A DNA stretch of 44,934 bases from an uncultured Thermoplasmatales archaeon (GTDB lineage: Archaea; Thermoplasmatota; SW-10-69-26; JACQPN01; CAZDGP01): NCBI GenBank assembly GCA_964505085.1, contig CAZDGP010000001.1, positions 93,292 to 138,225 of the forward strand, given 5' to 3'. Shown piece by piece: positions 10,862-44,934 of the stretch (positions are counted from its first letter, which is position 1; every line of letters starts with the position of its first letter). A program made the position numbers and the translations under genes. The notes under the pieces were generated by a model, which did not search any database, had not been told where the DNA came from, and worked only from the letters and a program-made list of their open reading frames with translations.

Positions 10862-10923
10862 AGCTGCGCCATGGGGAACCAGCGCCTTGAACCTCACGCT
10901 GCCAGCACCCACCATGACCGAAC

Positions 10924-10933
10924 CCTTTAAAGG
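10924..10933. promoter_or_regulatory. palindromic TATA element CCTTTAAAGG in the polB / DGGGPS divergent gap
   Basis: Perfect 10-bp palindrome. Its centre is about 26-27 nt from ATG 10955 of the plus-strand gene, which predicts a leaderless mRNA. The symmetric position on the other side is about 10902, upstream of the polB ATGs at 10861 and 10807. Confidence 0.5.
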
Positions 10934-10954
10934 CCGGTTGGGGGTTGTCGAACC

Positions 10955-13521: not shown

Positions 13522-14387
13522 TCGGGGACGCCCACCCGCACCCCCCGAACTTTGAAAGCTTCCGCGAGGTGGTGGATGCGCTCCGCCGTGGCGTCCTCGT
13601 CGAAGATCTCCTCACCGAACCCCTCGTAGGGCGTCCCCCGGAGCGCTCTAAGGGTCGCGGGTTGAGCCTTCTCGCGGTAGTTCCACTGCCCGAAGAAGAC
13701 GCGGTCCACGCCGGTGGCGGCGACGCGGTCCGCCACGTTCGCCGGGGCCCACCCGTCGGTGAGGGGGTAGGTGGGTGCAAGGCTCGCGTACGTCGGGATG
13801 CCGGCAGCGTGGATGCGCTCCAACGCCCGCAACCGCCCCGCCACCGGGGGTGCCTGCGGTTCCACCGCCTGGCGGAACCCATCGTCCAGGGTGGGGACGC
13901 TCACGCCCACGCGGAGGTCGTCGAATCCCTCGAGGAGGTCCAGGTCCCGGAGGACAAGGGGGCTGCGGGTGAGCACCCTGAGGGGCCACTGGACGCGAAG
14001 CAGGACCTCGAGGCACCGCCGCGTGAGCTCGTAGCGGCCCTCGGCGGGTTGGTAGGGGTCGGTGGCGCTGCTCAGGAAGACGAGCCCGGGGTCCCGGCGG
14101 CGGACCTCGCGGCTCAGGAGCCGGGGCAGGTTCCGCTTGGCCTTCACCCATCCGCCCCAGGGAGCTTGCTCCCGGTGGGTGACGCTGGGTACGTAGCAGT
14201 ACCGGCACCCGTGGGTGCATCCCAGGTAGGGGTTGAGGCTGTACGGGGTCCCCGGGAGGCCGCAGTCCGTGAGTCCGCTGCGGGCATCCACCTCCTCAAC
14301 GTTGTCCCCGGGTGTCCTGTCCCTGGGCGGGGTGGGGCGGGACCCGTCCCGGAAGTGGTCCAGCGTGGTGGATGCCGGGCTCGCCAT
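13518..14387 (-). CDS. radical SAM protein (SplB / DNA-photolyase-like COG1533 type)
   Basis: 289 aa with the CxxxCxxC cluster in LGCTHGCRYCYVP near the N-terminus and a TIM-barrel-like remainder. Its stop overlaps the e2b2 stop in a shared CTAG (13518-13521). Confidence 0.75.
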   Translation of the reverse strand: MASPASTTLDHFRDGSRPTPPRDRTPGDNVEEVDARSGLTDCGLPGTPYSLNPYLGCTHGCRYCYVPSVTHREQAPWGGWVKAKRNLPRLLSREVRRRDPGLVFLSSATDPYQPAEGRYELTRRCLEVLLRVQWPLRVLTRSPLVLRDLDLLEGFDDLRVGVSVPTLDDGFRQAVEPQAPPVAGRLRALERIHAAGIPTYASLAPTYPLTDGWAPANVADRVAATGVDRVFFGQWNYREKAQPATLRALRGTPYEGFGEEIFDEDATAERIHHLAEAFKVRGVRVGVPD

Positions 14388-14454: not shown

Positions 14455-15141
14455 CTACGCGTGGTCCCCGCCGTCCTCGCCAGCGCGGAGGCGGCGCACC
14501 GCCGCCATCACGAGGAGGCCGATGGCGGCGAGGAGCACCATGAGGACGGCGCCGTAGAGGGACCGGAGCTCGAGGCTCGCGGCCAAGGCCTCCGGGAGCA
14601 CGATCCCCACGATGCGGGTAAGGATGATGGCTCCACCGACGATGAGGGCGGCGAGGAGGAGCGTGCGGCGGCTCCGGTTCACGCGGTGCTCCATGGTCCG
14701 TAGCACGCGGCTGCGGACATCTCGGTCCGGGGTGTCGTCGTCCTCCCGGGTGCCAAGGCGATCCTGGAGGCTCGCACCCTCCCGGGCACCTAGCATGGCC
14801 TGCAGGAGCACCGCGAGCCCCAGCGCTCCCGCCAGGGCGATGACCCAATCCAGCACGGTGGGGAGGCCCAGGCGGTAGGGAGTGGGCGCCAGGACGATGA
14901 GGACGGTGCCCCAAAGCGTCCAGTTCACCCGGCATCGGAGAACACCCAGAAGGCCCACGAGTCCCCCTGCTCCCGCCAGGGCGAACCCGAGGAGAAGCGA
15001 CCCGCCGACGCCGTCGAGGATGGGGCGTCCCCTAAGCACGAGGGTGACAGCTGCCGCCGTGGCCACGAGGAGCCCCAGGAGCGCCTGGCCCCGCGGCAGG
15101 TGCTCGCGGACCCTCTCGACGGGCGGTCCTCCGTTGCTCAT
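14455..15141 (-). CDS. hypothetical polytopic membrane protein, last gene of the giant-protein string
   Basis: 228 aa with 4-5 hydrophobic segments separated by an Arg/Asp-rich loop. ATG 15141 overlaps the DUF58 stop (ATGA). No family recognised. Confidence 0.6.
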   Translation of the reverse strand: MSNGGPPVERVREHLPRGQALLGLLVATAAAVTLVLRGRPILDGVGGSLLLGFALAGAGGLVGLLGVLRCRVNWTLWGTVLIVLAPTPYRLGLPTVLDWVIALAGALGLAVLLQAMLGAREGASLQDRLGTREDDDTPDRDVRSRVLRTMEHRVNRSRRTLLLAALIVGGAIILTRIVGIVLPEALAASLELRSLYGAVLMVLLAAIGLLVMAAVRRLRAGEDGGDHA

Positions 15142-16460
15142 CGGTTCATCACCCTCCCCAAGGCCATCTCCAGGGTCTCACCGGGTTCCCAGTTCACGAT
15201 GTTCGCGTCGTACCCGCGGAGCATCCGGAGGTTCTCCTGCCGCTCGAGGGTCCCCAGCTCGTGCTCGGTGCGGCCGCCGTTCAGGCGCTCCGGCTCCACC
15301 TCCGGTACCGGTGGCACGACCACGGTGACGTAGAGGTCCCGAGCGCGCAGGTTCCGCACCGCCCGGGCCACGGAGGGGTCCGCGGCGAGGTTGCTCACGA
15401 TGACCACGGGCGTCCGGGGGCTGAGGCTGGGAAGGATCTCGTCCACGACCTCCCCCAGCGTCATGGCACCGCGTCCAGGCTCCTGAACCATGAGCTCGCG
15501 GACGTCGTGGGACATGCGCTCTGCGCCCTGGGGCTCCACCTCCGTCAACCCGTCACCGTAGGCCAGCACCTGGACGCGGTCCCGGTTCCCGAAGAAGTAC
15601 CCCATGAGGCTCACCACGGCGCGGGCACCGTACACGTTGGCGTTGGCGCCGGCGGTGCCCAGGGTGCTCACCTCCCGGGCATCGAAGAGAAGCGTAACGA
15701 GGGTCTGGGATTCCCGCTCCCACTGGTTCACGATGAGCTCGTCGTCGCCGCTCTTGCTGCTCGCCTTCCAGTTCACGGACCGCATGGGGTCCCCCGGGAG
15801 GTAGTCGCGGAGGGCGAAGAAGTCCGTGCCGCCGCCGGGTTGCCCCGTGTGGAAGGCTCCGCTCACGAGGAAGGGCTGGCGGGCGTTGGCGAGCACGTCG
15901 TCCAGGTCCTCCGGGCGTGGGAACACCTTCAGGCTCTCGACGCCTCCGGCGGCCTCGTCCCGAACGAAGAACCCGAAGGCGTCGCGGAGCCGAAGCTCCA
16001 CCGGGCCCACGTCGAAGGTTCCCTTCACCGGGCTCGTGACCTCGTAGCGGAGCTCCTCCCCCGCGGCATCGTCGAGGTCCAAGAGGTCGTAGTTGCTGCC
16101 CTCGGTGAGGGTCATGGCATCCTCCAGGCGGTCCCGGATCTCGAAGCTCGCGTTGCCACCGCCGCGGGCTGTCCGCACCCGGAGGACCACAGCCACGGCA
16201 TCCCGCTCGCTGGTGGTGCGCTTCCCCATCTCCCGCTCCACCTCCACGTCCAACCCCCCCACCTGCACCGCTCCCAGCGTCAGAAGGGTGACGAGCACGA
16301 GGCCCGCCGCCGTGGGCAGGGGGTTGCCCAGGGCCAACCCCGCGAAGAGGAGCACGAGGGCAGCGGTGGCCGCAGCCCCCCCGCGGGGCGTGAGCTCCGG
16401 GAGGTGCAGGCGGTCCTTCAGGCTAGGTTGGGCCTCCGGCTCCGTCGAGGGGTCCGTCAC
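15138..16460 (-). CDS. DUF58 domain protein (vWA-like partner of MoxR-type systems)
   Basis: 440 aa. Two N-terminal TM segments, then the DUF58 hallmark FFALRDYLPGDPMRSVNWKASSKSGDDELIVNQWERE. The GTG start 16460 overlaps the DUF4350 stop (GTGA), with GGAGGTGA 4 nt upstream. Confidence 0.85.
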   Translation of the reverse strand: MTDPSTEPEAQPSLKDRLHLPELTPRGGAAATAALVLLFAGLALGNPLPTAAGLVLVTLLTLGAVQVGGLDVEVEREMGKRTTSERDAVAVVLRVRTARGGGNASFEIRDRLEDAMTLTEGSNYDLLDLDDAAGEELRYEVTSPVKGTFDVGPVELRLRDAFGFFVRDEAAGGVESLKVFPRPEDLDDVLANARQPFLVSGAFHTGQPGGGTDFFALRDYLPGDPMRSVNWKASSKSGDDELIVNQWERESQTLVTLLFDAREVSTLGTAGANANVYGARAVVSLMGYFFGNRDRVQVLAYGDGLTEVEPQGAERMSHDVRELMVQEPGRGAMTLGEVVDEILPSLSPRTPVVIVSNLAADPSVARAVRNLRARDLYVTVVVPPVPEVEPERLNGGRTEHELGTLERQENLRMLRGYDANIVNWEPGETLEMALGRVMNR

Positions 16461-17731
16461 GTGGTCACCTCCCTCGTGTTGTCTGCGTCCTGGGTGCCAG
16501 TGGGTGACGACGCTGCATCAACCTCGCTCCCGTAGGCGCGGATGCGCGCGAGCAGGCTCTCGGCCCGGGTGCGGTTCACGGAGGGGTCCTCCGCCTCCAG
16601 GAGCTCCCGGATGCGCGGGTCCCCGGCGGCCTCCACGGCGCGGGCACGCTTGTCCTGCACGTGGTCCGGGATCTCATGGTGTCGCATGACCTCCTGTAGG
16701 GCGAGACGCTGCAACCGCCACCCCATGAGGTCGGGGCGGTCGCTGGGGATGTGGACGCTGTCGAGGTCCTGCCGGTGCACGCGGAAGTCCTCCGGACGCT
16801 CCAGGAGGAGCAACCCCAGGAGGGCTCCGCCCACGAGGGTGATGAAAGCGACGGAGCCAAGGATGGGGTCCTGGGTGCCCAGGACCGCCGCGGTGCCCGC
16901 CCCCCGCACCATGCCGGTGCCCAGGGGAGCGCGGTGGCGGGACTCGTCGAAGACCACGGTGCCGCCCTGGGGCAGGAGGGTGAAGACGAGGTCCCGGATG
17001 AAGGCGTCGTTGCGTGCGCCATCCATGTCCATGACGGCGTTGGTGAAGATGCCGGGGTCGCTCACGAAGACGATGACGCCGTCCCCCGCCTCCACCTGGA
17101 CGGCCACGGGGAAGGGGCCCTCCGTATCCGCGTCGTCGGAACGCCCGTTCCCGTTGAGGTCGATGTACGCGTTGGGGCTGGTGCGCGCGATGACGGTGGC
17201 GTCAGCGTCGGGAGCCACGCTCAGGCTCGTGGGCACGTTGGTCACGACGCGGAAGCTCCGATCGCCGAGGGTGGCGTTCACGGCGACGAAGCTGCGGTTC
17301 CCCGCGAAGTCGTCGTCGGAGAGCACCACCCCGTCGAAGCTCACGCCGAAACGGTTCGCAACGCTGTTCCCGGAGCCGAAGTCGTCGGCGAGGACCACGC
17401 GGCCCCCGTCCCGGACGAAGGCCTCGATGGCGTCCACCTCGCTGGAGCGGTACGCCTCCTCCACCCCGAGGACGAGCACGGCGTACCGCGAGGGGTTCTC
17501 GACGCCGCCGAGGAGGTGGGGTGACGTCTGGATGTTCCCCGTGGGGTACCCGTCGGCCGCCAGGGCCGTCCGGACCCGGCTCGCATCCCGGGTATCGTCC
17601 CCGTAGGCGCTGAGCTGGCGCTCGGGCCCGGTGAGGGTGGAGACCACGAGGGTTCCCACGAGGGCCACAGCGATGAAGATGAGTGCCATGCGCTTCCGCC
17701 GGGGAGACCATCCGCTCCAGGGAAGGTTCAT
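16457..17731 (-). CDS. DUF4350 domain membrane protein
   Basis: 424 aa from ATG 17731 (GGAGGTG 5 nt upstream). It has an N-terminal TM, an ectodomain with YAVLVLGVEE...AFVRDGGRVVLADDFGSG typical of DUF4350/GldG-like folds, a second TM near residue 320, and a cytoplasmic tail. Confidence 0.8.
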   Translation of the reverse strand: MNLPWSGWSPRRKRMALIFIAVALVGTLVVSTLTGPERQLSAYGDDTRDASRVRTALAADGYPTGNIQTSPHLLGGVENPSRYAVLVLGVEEAYRSSEVDAIEAFVRDGGRVVLADDFGSGNSVANRFGVSFDGVVLSDDDFAGNRSFVAVNATLGDRSFRVVTNVPTSLSVAPDADATVIARTSPNAYIDLNGNGRSDDADTEGPFPVAVQVEAGDGVIVFVSDPGIFTNAVMDMDGARNDAFIRDLVFTLLPQGGTVVFDESRHRAPLGTGMVRGAGTAAVLGTQDPILGSVAFITLVGGALLGLLLLERPEDFRVHRQDLDSVHIPSDRPDLMGWRLQRLALQEVMRHHEIPDHVQDKRARAVEAAGDPRIRELLEAEDPSVNRTRAESLLARIRAYGSEVDAASSPTGTQDADNTREVTT

Positions 17732-17798
17732 GGTCCCACCTCCGAGGCCGTGGAGCCGCGGGCGGGTTGCCACCTTGGCCCCCCGCGAGGCCGTGAGC

Positions 17799-20700
17799 TC
17801 ACGTGGGTTCACCTCCGGGGTTCCCGGGGGCGGTGACCCATCGCTTGCCCTCGCTCAGGTCCTGCTGGAGCGCACGGAGGTTCGCCACGGCGCGGTCCCG
17901 CATCTCCGGCCCGGCGGGGCGGACGCTGTACCGGGCCTCGTCGAAGATGTCCACGAGGGTGCGGAGGTGGTCCGGTTGCACCGGCAACGCATCCTCCGCC
18001 GCAGCCGCGAACTCCCGAGCGGTGAGGTCGGGACGGTCCTCGACATCGCTCACCCGGGACACGAGGGAGACGAGAGCGCGGTACGTCTGCATGATGACGG
18101 CCTCGTACTCGTTGCCTGCGGCCAGTTGCTCCTCCGCCGCGCGCAGGATGTCCCCCGCCTCCTCCACCAGGCCGCGACGCCACCGGAGGTACCCGTAGAT
18201 GCCCAGGCCCACGATGCCCAGAGCCAGGAGCGCCAGGAGGATGGGGGGTGCTGCCTGGGTGAAGGTGGATTCGCTGGCCACGAGCGTGGTGCTCGAGGTC
18301 TGGGGGAGCTGGGATTGGCTCCCGGTGAAGCGGGCGGTGACGTCGCTGGTGCCGGCGCTCGTGACGCGTCCGGGGAAGGTGGCGACACCGGTCTCGTTCG
18401 TGGTGAGGGTGATGGGGTAGCGGAAGCCGGAGAACCGCACGCGCACCTGGCTGTTCTTGATGGGGTCGCCCTCATCGTCCACGAGGCGGATGGTCCCCGT
18501 GAAGTCCTCACCCACCGTGAGATCCCGCGGTACCGTGACCTGGATGTTGGGCTTGCCCTGGATCTGCACCTCGCTGGCGTGGACGGCCTCCACGTGGTTC
18601 GAGTCCCCCGCGTACCGCACCTCCAGGATGGTGCTGCCCCGGGGAAGGTCCTGATCGAGACCGCCCTGCAGGAGGAAGCTCCCGTCGGGGCTCGTCCGAC
18701 CAGTCGTGACGAGGCTCCCGTTGACGAGAACCTTCACGGGAGCGTTCTTCACGGGCTCCCCGAGGTTCGTGTGGAGCTCGCCCTTGAGGGTGAAGACCTC
18801 CCCTCGGACCAGGGGTGTGAGGCTCCGCACCACGATGTTCGTGTCGGAGAGGACGCGGTAGTGGGCGGTGGCGGTGACGTCGCTGAAGCGGTTCGACCCC
18901 GGGTAGGATGCCTTCACCGTGACGTTCTGCGGTGAGAGCCTGGACCCGTCGAAGGTGAGTTGGAACCGGCCGCTGAAGTCCGTGAACGCCGTCTGCTCCA
19001 CCCCGTTGAAGCTCACGGTGATGGGAGCAGCCACCACGGGGCGGTCCTCCCCATCCACGAGGGTGCCGTTCACTGGGATGGGGCCCGTGCGCACCGTGCG
19101 GTCCGCGATGGTGAGTGATGTGTCGGCCCGCACATGGTAGAACGTGGAGACGGGGCCAGCAGGTGCCAGGGCACCGTCGGGGCTTCCGGCGTACTCCGCC
19201 CGCACCAGGGCGCTTCCCAGCGGTCGGTCCTCGGGGATGGGGTGGGTAACCTGGAAGCGTCCCTCGGCGTCGGTGGTGACGGTACCGAGGTCCGCGGTCT
19301 CGAAGACCACGCTCACGGGGGCGTCCGCCACGGCGTTCCCGAGGTTGTCGGTGAGGAACCCCTCCACCACCATCGTCTCACCGCGTGTCACGGGTTTCGC
19401 GGGGACGTCGAGGTGGGTGACGCTGCGGACGAAGGTCCGGTCCTGTGTGGTGCTCGATGCGTAGAGGGGGCTCCCCTGGAAGTCCGCGTGGACGCTCACG
19501 TTCCCGGGTTCCTGGATGGCGTCGGCGGGGAGCTCCACCCGGAAGGTGCTCGTGGCGTTGTCCACGGGCGCGGTGCGGGATCGGTTCCCCACCTGCAGCG
19601 TGACCTGGAGGGCATGGTCCACGGTGCTGTCGCGCACCGGGAGCCCCGCGAGGTCACGGAGCTCTCCACGGAGGACTAGGGGTTCTCCAAGTGCGCCCTT
19701 GTCCACGCTCACGAAGACCTGGGCCACCTGCTTCACCGTGACGATGCCGGCGTCGGTGCTCGCGGGGACGTGGCGGTCGTTCCCCTCGAAGGAGACGGAG
19801 ACCTTCCGGTTGCCCACGGGCGCCTTCTCCGATACGGGGACCCTGGCGGACCAACGGCCCTCGGAGTCGGTGGAGGTGGAGGTGGTGGCATCGAGGAACG
19901 ACACGTCCACGCGGGCGCCGGTCACGGGCAGCCCGCGGCTGTCCACGAGGCGACCGCTCGTGGGAAGGGTCCGACCGGCCACCGCGGTGAGGGTCTCGTC
20001 GTCCACGGAGGCCTCCAGGGTCGTGGGGAAGCGCACGTTCACGGGCACCGTCACCGTGGTGCCTTCCACGAGCTCGCTGTCAGGGAAGATGAGGGTGAGG
20101 TCGTGGGTTCCGGGGGCGTTGAAGGGTTCGGTGGGTTCGTCGAGGGTGATGGTGCCGGTGGCGTCCGTGGTGGCACGGGTGAGGACGCTTCCGCGCCATT
20201 CCACGCGGACGTCGCGGCTTGTCAGGGGATCACCCACGTCGTCGGTGAGGGTGAAGCTCCCCTGGAGGTTCCTCCCGTTCGTGAGGGCGACCTCCTCCGG
20301 CGCCTGCCACGTGCTCCCCGTGCGGATCGTGATGGAGTCCCCGACGGTGTGGGGGTCGGTGAAGGTGGTGAGGACGTCGTCCGTGCCGTAGCTCCAGACC
20401 ACGACCCGGTAGTCGAAGCCGGGGTCGAGGGTGCTCGTGTTCACACCCCACGAGACGGTGGACCCTGCAGCGCGCGGCGTCCCGAAGAGGGTGAGGTCCG
20501 CAGGCACCGACGTGGCGGTGGTCCGAGTGAGGTTCGCTGTGACCTCGAAGCTTCCGGAGCCGTCGGTGAAACCGACGCCGAGCACGCGCCCTTCCGCGGG
20601 TCGGGCCTCGCCGGCGTTGCTTACGGGCAGGAGGTTCACCAGCACCGGCACGTTCGCGAGGTCCGCGGATGCGTCGAGGCGCCCGGTGACGGTGACGTGC

Positions 20701-23700
20701 CCGCCCTTGTACGCCACGTTCTCCGAGCGGGGGTAGGTCACGTCCACGTTCTGGAACGACGGGGTGGGTCGGTCGTCGCTGCTTGGCCCCGTGACACGGC
20801 CCTCCTCCCAGACGTAGGAGCGCACGAGAGCGGGATCCCGCGGGTCGCGGTCCCCCGCGTTGTCGGGATCAAGGAGCGGGTGGGGGTCCTCGCCGTTGAA
20901 GTCGTTGAGACCGTCGTTGTCGTAATCGTAGTCGTTGCCGAGGACCGTGCTGGAGTCGACGATGACGCCGTCGGAGGCCCCGTCCCCGTCGGTGTCCTCC
21001 CGCACGGGGTTGGACCCGAACCACCACACGCCATCCGTCTCCAGGTTCCAGTCGTCGGGCATCCCGAGCTCGTACTCCTGTAGGTCGCTCAGGGCGTCGT
21101 CATCGTTGCGGGTGTCGGAGGTGTCGAGGCCGTAGCGCACCTCGTAGAAGGCCACCCACCCGTCGGGGAGCCCGTCACCGTCGGAGTCGGGCTTGGTGGG
21201 GTCGGTGGCGGGGGTGCGGGTCTCCTCCCCCAGGAAGACGCGCTCGCCGCCGTCGGTGACGAAGTACACGATGCCGGCATCCAGGAAGCGCTGGGTGGCG
21301 GTGGCGGAGAGCTCGGACTCCTTGAGGTCCGTGCCGTCCAGCAGCCCGTCGTTGTCGGTGTCGAAGTCCGCCACGTCGGTGGGGGGTGAGCGCGTGAGCT
21401 CCTCGCTGTTGGGGATACCGTCGAAGTCCACGTCCCCGTTGGGGTCGTCGTCCTTGGGGAACATGGGGTCCGTGTTGAAGTCCCCGCTCACCTCGTCCCC
21501 GTCGGGGATGCCCCCGAGGTCGCTGTCCTCGAGCACCGGGTCGGTTCCCTCCATGGCCTCCACGCGGTTCGAGAGGCCGTCGCCGTCGGCATCCCGGGAG
21601 GCCCCGCTGGGGTCGTGGGGGTTGAACTGGGCCCCGGCGCCGGCGGCCCGCTCCTTGTAGTACAGCTCCCACGTGTCCTCCATGCCGTCCCCGTCGGTGT
21701 CCAGCAGCGTGGGATCGGTGCTGGCGTTGAACTCGCCCCGGTACGTGAGGTCGAAACGACCCTGCACCTTCACGACGTCGCGTTGGCCACCGTCGGGGTC
21801 GGGCACGCTCTCGTAGGTTTGGGCCACGGTCTCGTTGTACGCGTCCACGAGGTCCGCGGGGGCCTCAGCGAAGCGGGTGTAGGTGAGGCTCTTGCTCACG
21901 TCGCCGGCATCCCGGGGGTCCAGGGGATCGAGGTCCACGGGTCGGCTGCTCCCGAGGCTCACCCGCTGGAAGAAGACCTCCCACCCGTCGGGGATGCCGT
22001 CACCGTCGGTGTCCTCGGCGTTGGGGTCGGTGCCTGACTCGAACTCCGCGAGGTTGTCGTGGACGTACGCGCGAGGCTTCACGTACCCCTCGGAGTAGGT
22101 GACGCCGTCCTCGTCGAGGTCCCGGTCGGCGTCGGTCTTGCCGTCGTTCAGGTCGAGGCTGTCCTCGTCGCTGGCGTTGAGGTTCCAGTTGCCGCGGTCG
22201 TAGTTCCATCGCGCGTACTTGTTCTCCCACGCGTCCGGGAGGCCCTCACCGTCGGTGTCCACGAGGGCCGGGTCGGTGACGGGGAGGAGGTACGTGTCCT
22301 TGCTCCCGGGTGCTGCCTCCCGCCGGGGCGGGTCGAGCTCCTCCCCGTCGGGGATGGTGTCGCAATCGCTGTCGGGGTCCACGATGTTGGGGATGCCGTC
22401 GCCGTCGATGTCCCCCTGGGGCGCCAGGGCGCTTCGGACCTCGTCCAGGGTGGTGGCGTCCACGCCCTGACAGGTGGTGAGTTGGCCCTGGTCCCGGATG
22501 CGGCTCAACCCGTCGTCGCTCATGGACTCGCGGGCGTTCCGCCAGTGGTCGAGCTCCGCCTTGTCCCGGAGGCCGTCCCCGTCGGTGTCGGGGTCGGTGG
22601 GGTCGAGCTTGGGTTCCACCTGGTAGAGCACCTCGAAGCTGTCGCTCAACCCGTCGAGGTCGGTATCGGGACTGCGGGGGTCGAGGCTGCAGGGGCCGTC
22701 GGGGCAGAACTCGAGCTGGCGACCGGCCACGGAGCCGAAGCCCCGTTGCTCGTCGCGGTCCGTGAGGAAGTCCCCGTCGGTGTCGGCCTTCGTGGGGTCG
22801 CTCGTCACATGGACCTCCTCGCCGTCCACCTTCACGGTCCATCCCTCCACCTCCTCAGGGTCGTCGAGGCCGTCACCGTCGGTGTCCCGGGAGCGGGGGT
22901 CGGAATCCACCTGCGCCTCCTGACGGTTGAGGAGCCCGTCATCGTCGAAGTCCCCGTCGGCGTCGCCGGGGTCCAGGGGGTCCAGTTGGTACCGGACCTC
23001 CCACCCGTCGTCCATGGTGTCCCCGTCGCTGTCGGGGTTCCGCGGGTCGAGCCAGGAGGCGTAGTCCTCACCCACCGTGGGGAGGCGTCCGGGGTTGAAG
23101 CTGTCCCGGCTCCACCGGAACTCCTCCAGGTTCGAGAGGCCGTCATCGTCGGGGTCCATGAAGGAGACGCCGGGCTCCGTGAGGTTCAGGTCGTGCTCCA
23201 GGAGGTACCCGTCGCTGATGCCGTGGCCTGCGGTGCTGTAGGCCACGGGGTTGGTGTGGTGCACGAAGATCTCGTCGGGGTCGCTGATCCCATCGTGGTC
23301 GGTGTCGGCGCTGAAGGGGTCGGTGCCGTGCTCCGCCTCCTCGATGTTGGTGAGGCCGTCCCCGTCGGGGTCCCCATCCGTTCCGGCGGCGGTCCGGGGA
23401 TCGAGGCCGTCGTAACGGCACTCGAAGGCATCGTCCATGCCATCCCCGTCGGTGTCGGCCTTCCAGGGATCGCTCCCGCACTGGAACTCCTCCAGGTTCG
23501 TGAGACCGTCACCGTCAGGGTCCTCGCCGCTGTCGTTGAGGAGGGGGTTCACGCTGTACGTGTTGCTGATGGGGTCCAGACGGCGATGTTCGGCCTCCCA
23601 CCCGTCGGGGATGCCGTCACCGTCGGTGTCGCTCCGCGCAGGGTCGGTGCCGTACGTGTAGAGCTCCTGGAGGTCGCTTACGTTGTCCCCGTCGGTGTCC

Positions 23701-38514: not shown

Positions 38515-41500
38515 GGCTGGAACCTCCCACGGGATCGGAGGAAGAGGAGCGCGACGGCCCCGGCCAGGACCACGAGGATCGGGCCCGCGCCGGGGACGAC
38601 GCGCTGCACGGTGGTGGCGAGGCCCGCCTGCCCCTCGTCCCTGTCGGAGACGACCATGGGGCCGGTGGCGGGGTCGTCCTGGGGGTGCGAGGCCACCGTG
38701 TGGGGGCCGTCGCTCGCCACGAACCGGTACGTGTGCACGCCGCTGCTCAACGTGGTCGTGTTGAGGCGCGTGGTGTACTCGTAGGTGGCCCCCGTGCGGA
38801 TGTCCTCCGAGGGGTCCACAGGTTGCATGTCGTGGGCTTCACCGTCCACGAAGACGCGGACGAAGGCGGGTGCATCCCCGTCGCGGTCCTGCACGACCAG
38901 GCGGTACGTGTAGGTGTCGCCGGGTTCGCCCTCCGCGGGGGTGACCCCCTCGTCGAGGAACCTGGGTGCGGTGGTGGTGAGGACCTCAACCTCGCGGGAG
39001 GCGGGGCCCTCGTTCCCTGCCACGTCCACGGCGTGGACGCGGTAGGTGGCGCGGGTGCCCGGCGCCACCTCGTCGTCCAGGAACACGGTGTCGGGCGTGG
39101 TGCCCACCGTGGTGGTGGCGCCGCTCTCGGCGACGCGCGTGATCACGTAGTGGTCGATGCCCACCTGGTCGAAGGCGGCCTCCCAGCGCAGGTCCACGTA
39201 CCCGCTGGGAAGCACCTCCGCCTCCACGTCCCGGACGCCGCCGGGGGCGGTGCCGTCGGAGCGGGTGGTGAACTCGAGGGTGTCGGTGCCGGCGTTGCCC
39301 AGGGCGTCCCGGGCCACGAGCTCCACCACGTAGTCCGTGGCAGGCGTGAGGTTGCCGAGGACGGCCACGTGGTTCGCAGCCACGTCGGTGACCTCCACCT
39401 GCCCCTCGAAGGCCGGGGATCCGGCTTCCTTGTAGCGCAGGGTGGCGCTGCTGGGCTCGTCGGTGCCCCAGCGGATGGCGGCCTGCGTGTACCCGGCCTC
39501 CTTGAGGGAGAGCCCCTGCACGCTGGGGCTCGTGGTGTCGAGGTGGACGCCCTGCCGGAGCGTCACGAGGTTCCCGGCCACGTCCCGCACCTGGGCCACG
39601 ATCTCCTTGGGACCGTCGCCAGCGGGGAGGGGCAGGGTGATCTCCACGGCGCCACCCCGAAGGACGGAGCCCGGGATCCCGGTGGGTTGGCCGGTGCCGG
39701 AGGAGACCTCGACGCGGTCGATGCCGCTGTGGTCGTCCTGGACATCCACCGAGAGCGTGACGTTGCGGTCGGCGGTGCGGGTGGTTCCGTCGGCGAGGCT
39801 GAGGTTCCCGGTGGGCACGGTGCGGTCGATGCGAACGTCGGTCACGCGCTCTGCCTCCACGTGGTCCAGGCGGTCCTCGCTCCAGTACGTGACCTCGTGG
39901 ACGCCGTCACGCTCGAGGACGAAGGCGCCCTGGTACTCCCGGGGCTCGCTGCCGTCCACGGACACGTACGTACGGATCCCGTCGGGGGTGGTGTCCGTGG
40001 TGTCGAGGCTGACGGTGGCGGGACCGGAGAACCACCCGTTCCGGGATGTGCCGGTGGTGGTGAGGTTCGTGGTTGGGGCGTCGTTGTCCACGGTGACGGT
40101 GCCCTCGGCGGGCAGGTGGAGCACGATGGGGTCCTCGGGGTTGAGGGTGTTGTTCGCCGCGAGGCAGAAGACGGCGGTGCTCGTGCTCGGGAGGTCCGTG
40201 CTGTCGAACTCGAGGTTGCGTCGGGCGGAGCTCCCCTCGAAGTACTCCGTGGTGGCCACGGGCACCGTGCAGTTCGTGGTGCCGTCGGGGCTCATGGTGA
40301 GGTTGTACGTCACCGTGAGGTCGCCGGTGACGTTCGTGGTGCGCCAGGAGACCTGCGTGCTCTCGCCCGTGAGGATGGAGCTGTTCACGGGGTGGATGGG
40401 GTGGAGCTGGAGCACGTTGCTCGTGCTCACGTTCAGCACCACCTCGCCACGGTTGCCCGCGATGTCCTCCATGCGGAGGGCGAAGCGGTAGGGTGCCTGG
40501 GCGTCGAGGCCGGGGGCGCGCACCTCGTGGACGGTGTCGCCCTCGTAGCTCGACGCGTTGTAGGCGATCCCCTGGGTGCGGTTGGCGTCAGCGGGCCACA
40601 CGAGGGCATCCACGTGGGGCACGGGCTCCAGGGTGGTGAAGTTCACGGTGATGGCGTGGGGCTCCTGGGTCACGTTGGGTGTGGTAGCCAGGGTGGGGCC
40701 CTGGAAGTCGAAGGTGAGCTGGGCCGTGGGTTGGTTCCGCTTCTCCACGTTGCCGGCGAGGTCCACCGCCCGGAGCCTGAGCAGGAGCTTGTCCCCATCC
40801 TGGGGGTCGGCGTCGATGTCGGAGTGGGCGGGGTCCCACACCACGTTGCCCCGGTTGAGGTCCGTGGAGGTCACGAGGTCCTCGGGGAGGGGTTCCCAGG
40901 TGACGTCGGAGGCGTCGGAGCCGGCGGGGAGGAGGTCCCACTCCACGTTGGTGTGGTCCAGGGGTCCGTCCTGCACCTCGAAGTCGAGGTCCACCACGGG
41001 CTCCTGGATGCGGGAGGAGGTGACGTTGACGTCCGTCACGGGGCGGGAGGTGTCCAGGAAGGTGGCGGACCGAACCCGCGTACCCTGGCTCGCGAGGGTG
41101 ATGGTCTCGACGTTCCCCGCGCGGTCGGTGCCTGCGGTGGCGAACTCGAGGGTGACGCTGTCCAGGGCGACGTACCGGCCGTCCTCCTTCTTCGTGACGT
41201 TGAGGGTGGAGAGGTCGCCGGGGTGGGCTGTGCTGACCTGGCACCAGCCTTTGCCGGTCGTGTTCCACACGTCACCCTTCACCAGGGGGTCGTCGAAGTC
41301 GTGGACGTTCTTCCGGCAGAGGTCCTGCGACGCTTCCTTGGCGTAGGCGCCGTTGGAGTCGACGACGCGCACGAAGAGGTCGTGGTGGCGCAGGGGGCTG
41401 TGGACGCGCTGTTGGATCTCCGCGGTGACGTCGAGGGTGTAGGCGTCCTGCGTGGTCTTCACGGTGCCGTTGGCGTGGCGGTCGACGGTGAGGTGCCCGA

Positions 41501-44500
41501 GGCCCGTGTAGCCCCTGTCGTTCCCGGCGGGGACCGGACGCGTGATGGGGGCGTGCCGCTCCACGTAGAAGGGGAGGTGGACGACGGTGCGGTTCCCGTC
41601 GCCCTGGAGCTCGGTGAGGTTCAGCTTGAGGTAGTAGAGCCCATCCTCGACCATCCCGCTGTCGTTCCGGAACATGGGGTTGGACCCGTCCCACAGCTCC
41701 TTGTCGTCGGCTCCCGTGGTGTTGGAGATGTCGTATGTGCCCTCCTGGGTCACGGGGAAGCCGGGGAGGTCCTTCACCGGGGTCCCGTCGGGGGTGACCA
41801 CCGTAGCGTTGAGGAAGACGGGCTCGCTCACGTTGGCTACAAGGCCAAGCTCGCAATAAACGGTTGAGGTACAAGTCTCATCCGGGTTGAAGTCCGTGGT
41901 GCGGTTGCCCTCGAGGCGGGGCAGGTGGTCGGTGGTGACGCGCACCACGTCCGTGCCGGGGTAGAACCCGTAGGGGTCGCTGGTGCGCTTGGGATCGTAG
42001 GTGGACCCGTCGGGGTTGGTGGCGCGTTCCTCGGCGGGCCCGTAGTACGCCTTCACGGTGACGAGGTGGGGGTCCACCTGTCCGTCCTCGTTGGTGTCGG
42101 TGAAGAGGTAGTTCCCCTCCTCGTCCAGGGCGTCGGTGTCCCACGTGAGGTTGTACCACGTGTCCGTGGGCTGGCCCTTGGCCTCGGCCACCGTCACACC
42201 GTTCACCACGACCTCGACCTTGCGGACGAACTCGGGGTTCTGGGGTTCGTTGAGGGCCTCCACGGCGGTGTGGAAGGAGGCGCGGATACCGCACTCGAGC
42301 GTGGTGGCGGTGTCGTAGCTTGGGCCGAGGCTCGCGCAACCCACGGTGGAGGGGCCCGCCGAGGCACCACTTGCGGGAGCCGGCGTGTCATCGTCGGCCG
42401 CGGGCTCCTCGGGGGTGTCCTCCCGTTGGGATTCACCGCGGAGGGCACCGTACTGGGCGAGGCTGTCGTCGGCGGCCTGGGCGAGCTCCTCGCCCCCGTC
42501 GAGGGTGGGGGAGAGGGCCTTGAGGAGCATGAGGACGTCGGCGCTGGCCCGGGCCGTCCGGGCTTCCTCGTACGTGGGGGCGGGGGACCCGGATGCCGAG
42601 GACCCCCCGGCGGCGAGGTCCACGGCGGTGTGGCCCGCATCGAAGGCGTCGTCGTCGGTGAAGCACGCGGCGGGGTCCACGCTGCAGGGGTGGGGGACGC
42701 CATCCACACCCAGTTGGTCGAACTCCAGCGGGACCAGGAACTGGGCACCGGACTGTCCCCCGAGGTAGGCGCTGAGGTTCTGGCTCGAGTACCGCACGGG
42801 ATCGAAGAGCGGACTGTAGAACGAGGATTCCGTGTAGAACCCGTAGAACAGGTCCATGGTGCGGTGAGTGCCCTCCTTGACCCCATCCTCGTAAGCGGTC
42901 CCGCCGTAGCCGTTCCCGTGCTCGACCAGGAAGCCACGGGTCTCATCGTGCCAGGGATCGTTGAAGCCCCCCTCATCCTCGCTTTCCGCGTTGAGGATGT
43001 GGAAGAGGCTGTCGTAGGTGTGGTGGGTGTACGTCACGCCGAAGTGCCCCGTCTCCCCCACGTCCACGTCCGTGGGGTTGGGGACCTCCACGAGGTCGCG
43101 GAGGTCCTGCACGGTCTCCACGAGCCCCGCGGCAGGACCGGAGTCGGCTGCCGTGTCAGGGGAGACGTGGAGGGGCGCGATGGCGAGGCTCCGGGCGTTG
43201 AGGAGCGTGGTGCGGTTCCCGCCGTAGGAGACGTTGAATCGGACGTTCACATCGCCGGTGTGGTCCCCGGACCCGTAGGCGGGGTCCTCCATGCGGACGC
43301 TGGGGCTCAGCAACAGGCTCGCCAGGCGCTGCACGGGCTCCCCACCCTGCTCCACCATGCTGGAGTGGAGGAGGAAGTCCACGTTGTCCACGCCCTGGGC
43401 GAGGGTGTGGTTCACCGTCCACTGCGCGTTGTTCTCGTGACCGATGCGCTGGTGGGCGTCGGGGTAGATGTCGTCGCCGAAGCCGTCGTCCACGAAGACC
43501 GCCGCGAGGCCGCGGGCGTCCACGTTGCGCCCAGCCGTCAACTGGGCCTCGTCCTCCACGTACCCGAGGCTCCGCAGGGGCACGTCGTACGTGTCGAAGC
43601 CCTCGCCGTCCACGAAGACGCCGGCGCCGATCTCGGCGTTCCTGTCGTCGGATACCTGGCCCACGTCCTGCGTCCCGTCCTGGAGGAGCGGTTGGCGCAT
43701 GTACAGCTCGTAGGAGCCCATGCTCCAGTCGCCGGCCATGTACCGGTCGGCGCCCTGGCGGTCCACGAAGATCCCGTACCCGCCGAGGGACCCGTACCCC
43801 AGGCCCCGGGTCCCGCGCTCGGTGGGGTCGGGCGCCTCGTAGACGTCGTCGCCCTCGTCATCCTGGAAGAGCCCGACGCCCAGGGTGCCATGGCCGAGAC
43901 CGCGACCGTCGAGGAGGTAGCTGTCGTCGCCGCTGAACTCGTGGAAGGTGGCGGTGGCGAGGAGCCCGAAGCCCAGGGTCCAGTTCTGCGTGTTCCTGTC
44001 GGTGTCGCCCTCCCCGAGGTACGTGTCGTCACCGCTCACGTCCACGTGCATGCTCGCGAGCTTGGGCCGCCAGTCGGGATGCCCCGTCAGGCTGTCGCCC
44101 TGGGTGGGGAGGGCGTCGGCCAGCTTGAGGACCTCCTCCCCGGGGTCCACCTCACCGTGGGTGGGGCTCAGGAGGGCGGCGGCGCCGGGGCGGTTCCGGT
44201 ACGTGTCGTCGCCGCCGAGGTCCACGCTCACGATGTAGCTGTCGGTCCAGTTGGTGGGGGTGGTGTCGCCCACGCCCAGGAGGCTGGGCACGGTGAGGAT
44301 GAAGGGGGTGCCGGCCTGGGGGTCGCTGGTCTCGTTCCAGCGCACCTGCCCCGTGTCCAGGAGGAAGCCGTCCTGCCCGGTGGTGGGGTCGTGGAGCTCC
44401 GCGTCCACGGCGATGCCGGTGCCGGGGTGCTGGTACTCCTGATTACCTACCCCATGCTCGGGGGGCGTGTACTGCCAGCCCACGCGGTACGTGCCCGTGG

Positions 44501-44934
44501 GGGGGTGCTCGATGGTGCCGGTGTGACGGATGCCCGTATCGTCACCCTGGAGGTCCACGAGGAGCCCAACACCTGGAGTGGCCGCCTTGACTTCGGATTC
44601 ATCGGAATCGTGCTCCTCCGCGATGCGGGAGAGGTCGACACCCTGCCACGTCACGTCCTCGTCACCCTCCTCGATGGCGATGCGCTCGGGCATCTCGGGC
44701 ACGACGTAGGTGTCGTTCCCGCCGTCGGCGAGGAAGAGGGCGAGGGCGCGGCTGTAGGCGGCGCCCTGGCCGTTGGCGTCGTCCTCGCGCTCGGTGAGGG
44801 TGAAGGTGTCGTTGCCCCAGCCGTCGTGGACGAAGAGCGCGACGCTCCCGGGGTTCCCGGCGTAGGCCTGGCTCTTGTTCGTGCTCGTGATCTCGTCGTT
44901 CCCGTGGGCGTCGTAGTACACGCCCACGGAGGGT
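38511..44934 (-). CDS. giant envelope protein A (at least 2140 aa, 5' end outside the window)
   Basis: The frame is open to the window edge, so the GTG at 44927 listed in the ORF track is not a real start. Architecture in order: periodic GxDxY repeat region, His/aromatic-rich segment, Ala/Asp/Pro linker, Ig-like domains ending in D-x-AGN, an OmpL47/chitobiase-like Ig domain, two FN3 domains, and a C-terminal anchor. Confidence 0.9.
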   Translation of the reverse strand, partial: PSVGVYYDAHGNDEITSTNKSQAYAGNPGSVALFVHDGWGNDTFTLTEREDDANGQGAAYSRALALFLADGGNDTYVVPEMPERIAIEEGDEDVTWQGVDLSRIAEEHDSDESEVKAATPGVGLLVDLQGDDTGIRHTGTIEHPPTGTYRVGWQYTPPEHGVGNQEYQHPGTGIAVDAELHDPTTGQDGFLLDTGQVRWNETSDPQAGTPFILTVPSLLGVGDTTPTNWTDSYIVSVDLGGDDTYRNRPGAAALLSPTHGEVDPGEEVLKLADALPTQGDSLTGHPDWRPKLASMHVDVSGDDTYLGEGDTDRNTQNWTLGFGLLATATFHEFSGDDSYLLDGRGLGHGTLGVGLFQDDEGDDVYEAPDPTERGTRGLGYGSLGGYGIFVDRQGADRYMAGDWSMGSYELYMRQPLLQDGTQDVGQVSDDRNAEIGAGVFVDGEGFDTYDVPLRSLGYVEDEAQLTAGRNVDARGLAAVFVDDGFGDDIYPDAHQRIGHENNAQWTVNHTLAQGVDNVDFLLHSSMVEQGGEPVQRLASLLLSPSVRMEDPAYGSGDHTGDVNVRFNVSYGGNRTTLLNARSLAIAPLHVSPDTAADSGPAAGLVETVQDLRDLVEVPNPTDVDVGETGHFGVTYTHHTYDSLFHILNAESEDEGGFNDPWHDETRGFLVEHGNGYGGTAYEDGVKEGTHRTMDLFYGFYTESSFYSPLFDPVRYSSQNLSAYLGGQSGAQFLVPLEFDQLGVDGVPHPCSVDPAACFTDDDAFDAGHTAVDLAAGGSSASGSPAPTYEEARTARASADVLMLLKALSPTLDGGEELAQAADDSLAQYGALRGESQREDTPEEPAADDDTPAPASGASAGPSTVGCASLGPSYDTATTLECGIRASFHTAVEALNEPQNPEFVRKVEVVVNGVTVAEAKGQPTDTWYNLTWDTDALDEEGNYLFTDTNEDGQVDPHLVTVKAYYGPAEERATNPDGSTYDPKRTSDPYGFYPGTDVVRVTTDHLPRLEGNRTTDFNPDETCTSTVYCELGLVANVSEPVFLNATVVTPDGTPVKDLPGFPVTQEGTYDISNTTGADDKELWDGSNPMFRNDSGMVEDGLYYLKLNLTELQGDGNRTVVHLPFYVERHAPITRPVPAGNDRGYTGLGHLTVDRHANGTVKTTQDAYTLDVTAEIQQRVHSPLRHHDLFVRVVDSNGAYAKEASQDLCRKNVHDFDDPLVKGDVWNTTGKGWCQVSTAHPGDLSTLNVTKKEDGRYVALDSVTLEFATAGTDRAGNVETITLASQGTRVRSATFLDTSRPVTDVNVTSSRIQEPVVDLDFEVQDGPLDHTNVEWDLLPAGSDASDVTWEPLPEDLVTSTDLNRGNVVWDPAHSDIDADPQDGDKLLLRLRAVDLAGNVEKRNQPTAQLTFDFQGPTLATTPNVTQEPHAITVNFTTLEPVPHVDALVWPADANRTQGIAYNASSYEGDTVHEVRAPGLDAQAPYRFALRMEDIAGNRGEVVLNVSTSNVLQLHPIHPVNSSILTGESTQVSWRTTNVTGDLTVTYNLTMSPDGTTNCTVPVATTEYFEGSSARRNLEFDSTDLPSTSTAVFCLAANNTLNPEDPIVLHLPAEGTVTVDNDAPTTNLTTTGTSRNGWFSGPATVSLDTTDTTPDGIRTYVSVDGSEPREYQGAFVLERDGVHEVTYWSEDRLDHVEAERVTDVRIDRTVPTGNLSLADGTTRTADRNVTLSVDVQDDHSGIDRVEVSSGTGQPTGIPGSVLRGGAVEITLPLPAGDGPKEIVAQVRDVAGNLVTLRQGVHLDTTSPSVQGLSLKEAGYTQAAIRWGTDEPSSATLRYKEAGSPAFEGQVEVTDVAANHVAVLGNLTPATDYVVELVARDALGNAGTDTLEFTTRSDGTAPGGVRDVEAEVLPSGYVDLRWEAAFDQVGIDHYVITRVAESGATTTVGTTPDTVFLDDEVAPGTRATYRVHAVDVAGNEGPASREVEVLTTTAPRFLDEGVTPAEGEPGDTYTYRLVVQDRDGDAPAFVRVFVDGEAHDMQPVDPSEDIRTGATYEYTTRLNTTTLSSGVHTYRFVASDGPHTVASHPQDDPATGPMVVSDRDEGQAGLATTVQRVVPGAGPILVVLAGAVALLFLRSRGRFQP
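38514..38597 (-). other. C-terminal anchor/sorting signal of protein A
   Basis: VPGAGP-ILVVLAGAVALLFL-RSRGRFQP: a Pro/Gly motif, a hydrophobic helix and a basic tail. Confidence 0.55.
38973..39530 (-). other. two tandem fibronectin type III domains in protein A
   Basis: Residues about 1800-1985. The first reads PSVQGLSLKEAGYTQAAIRWGTDEPSSATLRY...TPATDYVVELVARDALGN. The second reads PGGVRDVEAEVLPSGYVDLRWEAA...YVITR...TYRVHAVDVAGNEG. Confidence 0.75.
43464..44840 (-). repeat. ten copies of a periodic h-h-h-D-x-x-G-x-D-x-[YF] motif (unclassified repeat) in protein A
   Basis: The ten copies are FVHDGWGNDTF, FLADGGNDTY, LVDLQGDDTG, VSVDLGGDDTY (codons verified at 44199-44225), HVDVSGDDTY, FHEFSGDDSY, FQDDEGDDVY, FVDRQGADRY, FVDGEGFDTY and FVDDGFGDDIY. 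They lie at residues 30-488 with 25-110 aa spacing. Confidence 0.65.

Follow-up and report, generated by a model that had tools for sequence, protein, structure and literature searches.

A 45-kb stretch of contig CAZDGP010000001.1 from an uncultured Thermoplasmatales archaeon (the whole stretch is called the window here; GC content, 68 to 71%) carries seven consecutive open reading frames (ORFs) on its minus strand, from position 14455 to its end. These genes, designated A to G from 5' to 3' (Table 1), encode three large surface proteins (A, B, and C), a giant protein with a DUF4129 domain (D), a DUF4350 protein (E), a DUF58 protein (F), and a polytopic membrane protein (G). This study concerns the membrane module formed by D to G and its linkage to the genes for the giant surface proteins. 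An earlier reading of the window from its letters alone (the sequence-only reading) had described seven minus-strand genes of these lengths with almost no space between them. All of the ORFs are present, with a GC content at third codon positions (GC3) of 0.85 to 0.94, and every junction agrees with that description. Overlaps occur at A/B (GTGA), B/C (28 nucleotides [nt]), C/D (16 nt), E/F (GTGA), and F/G (ATGA), and the only real gap within the string (67 nt, at D/E) contains a Shine-Dalgarno (SD)-like site. A database protein (P0001) begins at the same start as the 424-amino-acid (aa) form of E. Domains were called from Pfam matches above the curated cutoffs, and transmembrane (TM) segments were taken from a hydropathy scan. 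The scan agreed with the signal peptides proposed earlier for B and C, with the signal anchor of D, and with the membrane anchors, including the second TM segment of D. The families expected in D, E, and F (PF13559, PF14258, and PF01882, respectively) were recovered above their cutoffs, as were CARDB and NPCBM_assoc in B and C, fn3 in A, and CarboxypepD_reg in D.

Table 1. Genes and features of the A-to-G string (window coordinates)
Feature	Coordinates	Strand	Details
Gene A, giant surface protein	38511..44934	-	>2140 aa, N terminus past the window end; GC3 0.94
Gene B, secreted giant protein	28048..38514	-	3488 aa
Gene C, secreted protein	23918..28075	-	1385 aa, from Met67 of the longest ORF
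Gene D, DUF4129 subunit	17799..23933	-	2044 aa
Gene E, DUF4350/arCOG01314 protein	16457..17731	-	424 aa from Met28; 451 aa from an upstream GTG
Gene F, DUF58 protein	15138..16460	-	440 aa
Gene G, polytopic membrane protein, 5 TM segments	14455..15141	-	228 aa
GGAGGTG Shine-Dalgarno-like site	17737..17743	-	6 nt 5' of the E ATG
D, TSP3 (Ca-binding) repeats, residues 79-845	21399..23699	-	At least 16 motifs; PF18884 TSP3_bac, 96.9 bits
D, Ig-like/CarboxypepD_reg/Big_3_5/MG-type beta-sandwich array, residues ~1100-1890	18264..20636	-	Profile matches
D, second TM segment (~1893-1916; hydropathy 1898-1916), RWRRG, and DUF4129 (1951-2020)	17874..18257	-	PF13559, 48.7 bits (cutoff, 24.8)
C, orphan all-beta region, residues 30-750	25826-27988	-	Invariant WW..WH.RVPV and many other invariant positions in 13 orthologues
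A, C-terminal tail VVPGAGPILVVLAGAVALLFLRSRGRFQP	38514..38600	-	VPxxxP motif, hydrophobic helix, Arg cluster; resembles a sortase-type signal
B, C-terminal tail AVPLPVGWAFIALAAAALCLRRRWTS	28051..28128	-	TM segment and Arg cluster
C, C-terminal tail NVPGPGFLLLVLTAAVGAVVTRRWRRW	23921..24001	-	TM segment and Arg cluster

D is a genuine, hypertrophied subunit of a conserved membrane module. Its chain starts with a TM segment (residues 33 to 51), continues as an ectodomain of approximately 1,840 aa, and passes through a second TM segment into a predicted cytoplasmic DUF4129 domain. Because there is a TM segment at each end of the ectodomain, both ends are predicted to be tethered to the membrane, with the DUF4129 domain in the cytoplasm. 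The Pfam families matched above cutoffs are TSP3_bac, CarboxypepD_reg, Big_3_5, MG4, Big_1, and DUF4129. The usual DUF4129 subunit has an ectodomain approximately one-third as large, and the arrangement of the second TM segment and DUF4129 is kept in all D orthologues. No transglutaminase or peptidase domain was found in D, and PF01841 had no match in any gene of the string. Since D bears the DUF4129 domain, it is a subunit of the module and not a mere neighbor of it. In two marine loci (TARA; L007:860-9999 and L008:1015-9999), the D-like sequence was called as two genes, one encoding a TSP3 protein of 998 aa and the other an Ig/DUF4129 protein of 1,850 to 1,978 aa; the two calls reflect a genuine split or, alternatively, a frameshift within one gene for a protein of approximately 3,000 aa.

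E matches PF14258 (DUF4350) with 54.1 bits (cutoff, 30.4) and is predicted to consist of an N-terminal anchor, an extracellular GIFT (GldG/IFT52/OST48-like) domain, a TM segment (residues 290 to 308), and a helical cytoplasmic tail. A profile made from the E alignment matches IFT52 in the PDB. In an AlphaFold model (predicted local distance difference test score [pLDDT], 78), the cytoplasmic tail is confidently helical, and the top Foldseek matches are the N-terminal domain of IFT52 (E value, 2e-8), chains of the yeast oligosaccharyltransferase (OST) complex, and a GH42 trimerization domain. We take the OST chains matched by E to be the GIFT-domain subunit of that complex. OST48/Wbp1 has a GIFT ectodomain, a TM helix, and a cytoplasmic tail, as in E. 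The profile and model matches confirm the GIFT fold of the E ectodomain.

F matches PF01882 (DUF58) with 41.1 bits (cutoff, 23.4) and has an N-terminal TM hairpin followed by an Ig-like and vWA-like body, which the hairpin would place in the cytoplasm. The DUF58 proteins of the module carry D-[AST]-R-[ED]-x-S at the DxSxS position of the metal ion-dependent adhesion site (MIDAS), and the form DCSPSM is kept only in a separate group of loci (L023 to L029) in which the DUF58 gene lies on the opposite strand. We considered whether loss of MoxR is tied to a degenerate DUF58 MIDAS and rejected this link, because D-x-R-x-x-S is seen both with and without MoxR. G has no Pfam or NCBIfam match, DUF1616 included, and contains the C-terminal motif S-L-E-L-x-S-L-Y-G. 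A family of multi-TM genes with S-[LIV]-E-[LFY]-x-[ST]-x-[YF]-G before the last TM segment occurs in all of the Thermoplasmatota lineages sampled, including marine group II (MGII). Examples include positions 14455-15141 (minus strand) of the window, L007:13564-14409, and L035:12882-14060, and the family has no published description. The multi-TM gene lies 3' of the DUF58 gene in most loci where its position is readable. G is the conserved last gene of the module.

To survey the module, we used contigs carrying DUF4350 homologues and 80 loci from GTDB species representatives, which were scanned with hidden Markov models (HMMs) derived from the window and from the loci collected first. Almost all of the top DUF4350 matches came from Thermoplasmatota (i.e., Thermoplasmata, Poseidoniales, and other metagenome-assembled genomes [MAGs]). 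E shares only 39% identity with its counterpart in the nearest species representative, and the lineage of the window is hence poorly represented. The order that recurs in non-MGII loci is [DUF4129 protein]-DUF4350-[MoxR]-DUF58-[multi-TM protein]. The DUF4129 partner directly 5' of DUF4350 has approximately 670 aa in many loci and 1,060 to 2,219 aa in others, and in L005 the partner at this position carries a Transglut_core domain. MoxR is encoded in many non-MGII loci and is missing from the window, L001 to L006, L013, L017, L021, and all Poseidoniales. The Poseidoniales loci (L035 to L091; e.g., L087:9953-14053) encode DUF4350 (approximately 548 aa), DUF58 (417 aa), and a protein with seven or eight TM segments, with neither DUF4129 nor MoxR. 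A 745-aa MGII gene 5' of the module was considered as a MoxR fusion and rejected, since the MoxR profile matches it only weakly, at the P-loop, and a gap of approximately 330 nt lies between it and the module. By size and N-terminal sequence, this gene presumably encodes a CDC48-like protein. One Thermoplasmatota MAG (L019:3-9825) has, between the DUF4129 gene and DUF4350, an extra gene for a TM-anchored protein of 1,702 aa that weakly resembles the CARDB region of B; this is a second, independent large CARDB-type surface protein within the module.

Among the first 91 loci, a C-like gene was found 5' of D only in L001. The whole L001 neighborhood is collinear with that of this close relative, the window, and the linkage seen there therefore says little. 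A homologue search with C yielded 12 full-length orthologues (P0021 to P0032; 1,343 to 1,423 aa; 26 to 47% identity), and six contigs carrying C orthologues besides the window were examined, namely, L001 and five others (L092 to L096). On all six, a C-like gene is followed by a D-like gene and then by DUF4350. A B-like gene lies 5' of the C-like gene on each of the five contigs that reach upstream; L001 begins inside its C-like gene. The B-like proteins of L092 to L095 have 3,687 to 5,265 aa where complete and contain CARDB, NPCBM_assoc, and MAM domains, and L096 retains only a truncated fragment of 1,418 aa. The D-like proteins have 2,076 to 2,219 aa on the six contigs (2,122 to 2,219 aa on L092 to L096) and contain TSP3, Ig-like, and DUF4129 domains. 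In tblastn comparisons, homology was collinear over most of B and extended over the full length of D. Where the contig continues 3' of DUF4350, MoxR and/or DUF58 and then a membrane protein follow. In L093 and L094, the E and F genes are separated by MoxR, which is missing from L001, L092, and L096; in L095, a fragment of 55 aa resembles the MoxR N terminus by eye.

By pairwise identity, these contigs and the window fall into approximately five deep lineages (i.e., window/L001, L092/L096, L093, L094, and L095), between which C is 26 to 37% identical and the GC content ranges from 63 to 74%. At the level of gene order, B and C thus show a conserved linkage to the module. In L092, the membrane protein gene is followed by an oppositely oriented gene that does not correspond to the radical SAM gene of the window; because this far flank differs, the conservation is specific to the operon. 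Neutral gene order is normally lost at such divergence, and yet the order is kept, which argues against the option, left open by the sequence-only reading, that unrelated adhesin genes happen to be adjacent. The conserved B-C-D-E order looks like that of a functional operon and would not be expected of adhesin genes brought together by chance.

These comparisons also bear on the possibility that the string is an artifact (i.e., a chimeric contig, collapsed repeats, or chance giant ORFs). High-GC DNA yields many long spurious ORFs, and the contig is a metagenomic assembly. However, GC3 values of 0.90 to 0.94 are found in the called frames and in no other frames. The region from 14 to 45 kb contains no tandem repeats or high-identity direct repeats, the only repeated units being those of the D TSP3 region (60 to 80% identity), and misassembly driven by repeats is therefore unlikely. 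Independent assemblies from six other samples show the same order, with B-, C-, and D-like proteins of comparable sizes, and representative proteins of 3,000 to 5,265 aa exist. We regard an artifact as extremely unlikely.

The giants themselves are mostly orphan sequence. In A, the N-terminal approximately 520 aa of the part inside the window contain G-[DN]-D-[ST]-[YF] repeats. Orphan sequence makes up the middle, and the last approximately 500 aa comprise an OmpL47-type barrel (51.2 bits), Big_7, and fn3 (35.5 bits), followed by the anchor; residues 1 to 1600 had no significant match in Pfam or to PDB sequences. B begins with a signal-like hydrophobic segment and ends in a CARDB/NPCBM_assoc/DUF11 array of approximately 600 aa with an anchor. 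Weak MAM-like jelly-roll matches are scattered along its chain, and its first approximately 2,900 aa gave no significant Pfam or PDB-sequence match. C has a signal-like segment, an orphan region of approximately 720 aa, and then Ig_VWA7, NPCBM_assoc, CARDB, and an anchor. No significant Pfam or PDB-sequence match was found for its first approximately 750 aa. An AlphaFold model of C residues 30 to 750, made with 12 orthologues, is all-beta (pLDDT, 68.5; predicted template modeling score [pTM], 0.72), and a Foldseek search with it returned only meaningless matches (TM-score, approximately 0.1). Sequence searches of the PDB with A, B, and F gave no matches. In self- and cross-BLAST comparisons of A to D, the sole shared region was the C-terminal CARDB part of B and C. 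The proteins A to C (A with less certainty) are acidic and contain many N-X-S/T glycosylation sequons. The sequence-only reading had described the four giants as consisting nearly throughout of beta-sandwich modules of adhesion or Ca-binding types; this holds for D and is only plausible for A to C, in which Pfam recognizes just the C-terminal parts.

A word-index search with B residues 1 to 1200 found no relatives, and an exhaustive HMMER search of 1.84 billion representative proteins with the same region did find the family. It comprises 44 relatives, approximately 24 of which have 3,000 to 5,265 aa and which include the proteins of L092 to L095. The B family is thus a rare, clade-specific family of giant proteins.

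The C-terminal tails of A to C resemble those recognized by archaeosortases (PGF-CTERM/VPXXXP-CTERM), in that A, B, C, and all orthologues of B and C end in a Pro motif, a helix, and an Arg cluster. In the B and C orthologues, the tail reads [VIL]-P-x-x-x-[PG], a hydrophobic helix of approximately 17 residues, and an RRR cluster. In scans of the isolated tails of A, B, and C, none of the NCBIfam sorting-domain models reached its threshold. The model TIGR04126 (PGF-CTERM), which the sequence-only reading had proposed for searching the ORFs, matched best in B (12.5 bits against a cutoff of 24.5) and not at all in A, and the C tail gave only a subthreshold PEP-CTERM match (14.3 bits against 16). 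Membership of A to C in PGF-CTERM was rejected on these HMM scores, and no archaeosortase family was found among the scanned ORFs of the window, which covers 45 kb of a 138-kb contig.

The membrane genes of the string belong to a type of system that has been described from comparative genomics, although the sequence-only reading knew of no named system with this composition and regarded DUF4129, DUF4350, and DUF58 as a functionally unassigned triad. The neighborhood of arCOG01314 (DUF4350) encodes a MoxR ATPase and an Ig+vWA protein, as well as membrane proteins and Ig-like "S-layer" proteins, and it was modeled as a putative novel secretion or membrane-remodeling complex (Makarova, Galperin, and Koonin 2015, PMC5898192). 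The same authors drew an analogy to GldG and the type IX secretion system (T9SS), including its export of giant adhesins, and scored cultured Thermoplasmata as being without arCOG01314 (PMC5898192). We found no later literature mentioning arCOG01314, and the system is known as a prediction only. Like it, the window encodes a DUF4350 protein with a membrane-anchored GldG-like (GIFT) ectodomain next to an Ig+vWA (DUF58-type) protein, and the predicted operon also holds extra membrane proteins and Ig-like surface proteins (B, C, and D), which may correspond to the accessory proteins of that system. MoxR is present in the sister operons of L093 and L094 and not in the window. The partners here are DUF4129 and the G family, in contrast to DUF1616/arCOG02884 (PMC5898192), and the surface proteins have 1.4 to 5.3 thousand residues.

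In line with the preference of Makarova et al. (2015), D to G together with MoxR could constitute a dedicated secretion system that exports the giants as cargo, as GldG/T9SS exports SprB. This proposal (PMC5898192) would fit the GIFT/GldG-like ectodomain of E and the conservation of genes for giant candidate cargo directly upstream. However, the module contains no recognizable pore or channel, no ATPase is encoded in the operon of the window or of three other clade members, the classical N-terminal signal peptides of B and C point to Sec, and MGII genomes keep the module without the cargo genes. We consider a secretion system unlikely. GldG/T9SS, IFT52, and OST48/Wbp1 share the GIFT fold with the ectodomain of E, and T9SS likewise handles giant adhesins such as SprB, but no ABC transporter and no T9SS, IFT, or OST component is encoded in the window, and the likeness is confined to one domain.

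A second relative is the bacterial MoxR-DUF58-TgpA/YebA triad, in which a DUF58 protein is likewise encoded beside a membrane protein with the same operon logic. TgpA ends in a DUF4129 domain. D has a C-terminal DUF4129 domain after its last TM segment, as in the triad, and the pairing of Transglut_core with DUF4129 was observed only in L005. Unlike TgpA, D lacks a transglutaminase core and carries its TSP3/Ig array on the outside; the string has an additional DUF4350 subunit and the window has no MoxR. Zhang and Aravind (2012, PMC3495828) interpreted MoxR-vWA-YebA/TgpA as a degradation system that acts close to the membrane, and TgpA is reported to be essential in Pseudomonas aeruginosa (PMC3507681). 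By analogy, the giants could be substrates of a turnover or cross-linking process in which the vWA protein recruits them, MoxR unfolds them, and the DUF4129 protein processes them. The published interpretation (PMC3495828), the Transglut_core domain of the L005 partner, which occupies the same operon position, and the essentiality of TgpA speak for such a process. The lack of a transglutaminase or peptidase domain in D, the lack of MoxR in the window, and the structural or adhesive look of the D TSP3/Ig arrays speak against it, and we judge it very unlikely.

In Bifidobacterium, the PFNA cluster (pkb2-fn3-MoxR-duf58-tgm) links a surface FN3 protein to MoxR-DUF58-Tgm (PMC8430577). It resembles the window in that the gene for a large, adhesin-like secreted protein (FN3) is coupled to genes for MoxR-DUF58 and for a membrane protein of the DUF4129 type, but it is bacterial and linked to a kinase, has one FN3 protein of moderate size and a transglutaminase, and has no DUF4350. 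The TSP3 region of D aligns to Myxococcus CglD (NF033765; E value, 3e-40) and MtsD, which have Ca-binding surface adhesive repeats. The scores are far below the equivalog cutoffs (137.9 bits against 400 and 65 against 800), the likeness covers TSP3 repeats only, no gliding machinery is encoded, and D is an archaeal inner-membrane protein. Thrombospondin-repeat genes of Poseidoniales have been noted in the literature as adhesion factors, without the context of the module. D to G are the Thermoplasmatota form of a DUF4129-DUF4350-(MoxR)-DUF58-polytopic-protein module related to bacterial MoxR-DUF58-TgpA. The membrane part is therefore already known, as a prediction, and we did not find the conserved fusion and linkage to giants in a Thermoplasmatota clade described in the literature.

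The interpretation that we favor is of one envelope operon in which D to G form a platform that organizes or anchors the coexpressed giants B, C, and probably A; we put its chance of being correct at about even. In its favor are the stop and start codons that overlap, with SD sites, all along the string, the gene order kept across the lineages, and the conserved sorting-like tails of the B and C orthologues. A compact assembly on the cytoplasmic face would combine DUF4129 from D with the helical tail contributed by E and the Ig+vWA body contributed by F, and a MoxR AAA+ ring would join it in the sister lineages. Outside, the GIFT domain of E would stand beside an arch of approximately 1,840 residues formed by D (Ca-binding TSP3 repeats and approximately eight Ig-like domains), both ends of which carry a TM helix. 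Sec would export B, C, and probably A, and these proteins would be held at the membrane by the C-terminal VPxxx(P/G)-helix-RRR tail, which may be either a TM anchor or a signal of the archaeosortase type. The module would then act as a membrane-spanning platform that receives, organizes, and anchors the giants so that they form an adhesive layer or a coat on the surface, and it may remodel them using ATP where MoxR is present. Cotranscription, physical interaction of the giants with the module, and a role in assembly or anchoring are steps that we infer, and it is gene order that suggests the physical association. In a more specific form, the module would be a biogenesis or anchoring machine for very large surface proteins, with B, C, and probably A as clients encoded in the same operon, the D arch as extracellular scaffold, and vWA/DUF4129/MoxR driving or gating assembly; we put this forward tentatively, as a possibility with well under an even chance.

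Several observations weigh against a platform for the giants. Every member of the module is known from predictions alone. No MoxR (AAA_3/AAA_5) gene was found anywhere in the window; any step driven by ATP would therefore depend on a gene located elsewhere, or it does not take place. F has D-A-R-E-V-S at the MIDAS position (residues approximately 255 to 265) and no canonical MIDAS. The signal peptides of B and C are ordinary, and these proteins have no obvious need for a dedicated machine. B-like and C-like genes are absent from approximately 80 other module loci, including all of the Poseidoniales sampled, which indicates that B and C are clade-specific additions and that the module works without them. 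For A, no homologue was found in the fetched loci, which hold nothing 5' of the B-like genes; two metagenome scans (with A and with the 5' end of L092 as queries) gave no matches. Finally, conserved order indicates coinheritance and coregulation, not contact.

The same observations would suit a string of genes that are coregulated and functionally independent, in which A to C are ordinary adhesins or coat proteins, D to G are self-sufficient (e.g., in envelope stress or quality control), and only a promoter is shared. The module stands alone in approximately 80 loci, including all of the sampled MGII genomes; each of A, B, and C has its own anchor as well as a Sec-type signal; and A has no homologue near any other module. 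Against such independence, the B-C-D-E order is kept on the other contigs examined in spite of the low identity of C, start and stop codons overlap at all junctions from A to D, and D itself fuses a giant adhesin-like ectodomain to DUF4129. We consider it somewhat unlikely. As for the proposal in the sequence-only reading of one dedicated envelope apparatus, the coupling of B, C, and D is borne out by conserved order, but the giants are specific to a clade and the module occurs without B and C.

Modules of the MoxR-DUF58-DUF4129 (TgpA-type) and DUF4350/arCOG01314 kinds are common among both archaea and bacteria. The fusion of the module to a giant ectodomain in D and its coinheritance with B and C provide the clearest genomic pointer so far to a target, namely, very large envelope proteins, and the giants are the first candidate partner proteins for this widespread membrane gene set. 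If the module is a biogenesis machine, this would assign a function to it across archaea and many bacteria, including the relatives of TgpA and PFNA. The data also define a rare family of archaeal proteins of 3,000 to 5,300 residues and a conserved orphan domain in C, and they suggest how wall-less or poorly characterized Thermoplasmatota may build their surface. All of the hosts are uncultured, and the functional steps are all inferred from genomes. These findings are relevant to archaeal envelope biology and to research on MoxR-vWA-TgpA modules.

Outside the string, the left third of the window encodes TatD, an SNF transporter, NMD3, MCM, PolB, UbiA (digeranylgeranylglyceryl phosphate synthase type), PcrB (geranylgeranylglyceryl phosphate synthase), aIF-2B, and a radical SAM protein. 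The radical SAM gene (13518-14387, minus strand; PA0069/Rv2578c-like, below the equivalog cutoffs) lies directly 3' of G, at a spacing of 67 nt without an SD site. It was considered as a member of the system and rejected: its synteny is limited to close relatives (L001, 67% identity), and the radical SAM gene of L005 is not orthologous. Runs of five or more T residues are absent from both strands across the 45 kb, and a search for oligo-T terminators is hence uninformative. The cytoplasmic proteins of the window are moderately acidic (pI, 4.3 to 5.5) and very low in Lys, which may reflect the high GC content or some salt adaptation. A small protein (3225-3830, minus strand) combines a hydrophobic anchor at its N terminus (MEKIDLAIIVVGVIVVV...) with a beta-type ectodomain rich in Thr and Val, and its only matches, to Arch_flagellin and MG2, are weak. 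The longest PolB ORF (8381-11713, minus strand; 1,110 aa) has a TTG start and overlaps the UbiA gene on the opposite strand; the true start is probably near 10858, since PolB of relatives has 825 aa.

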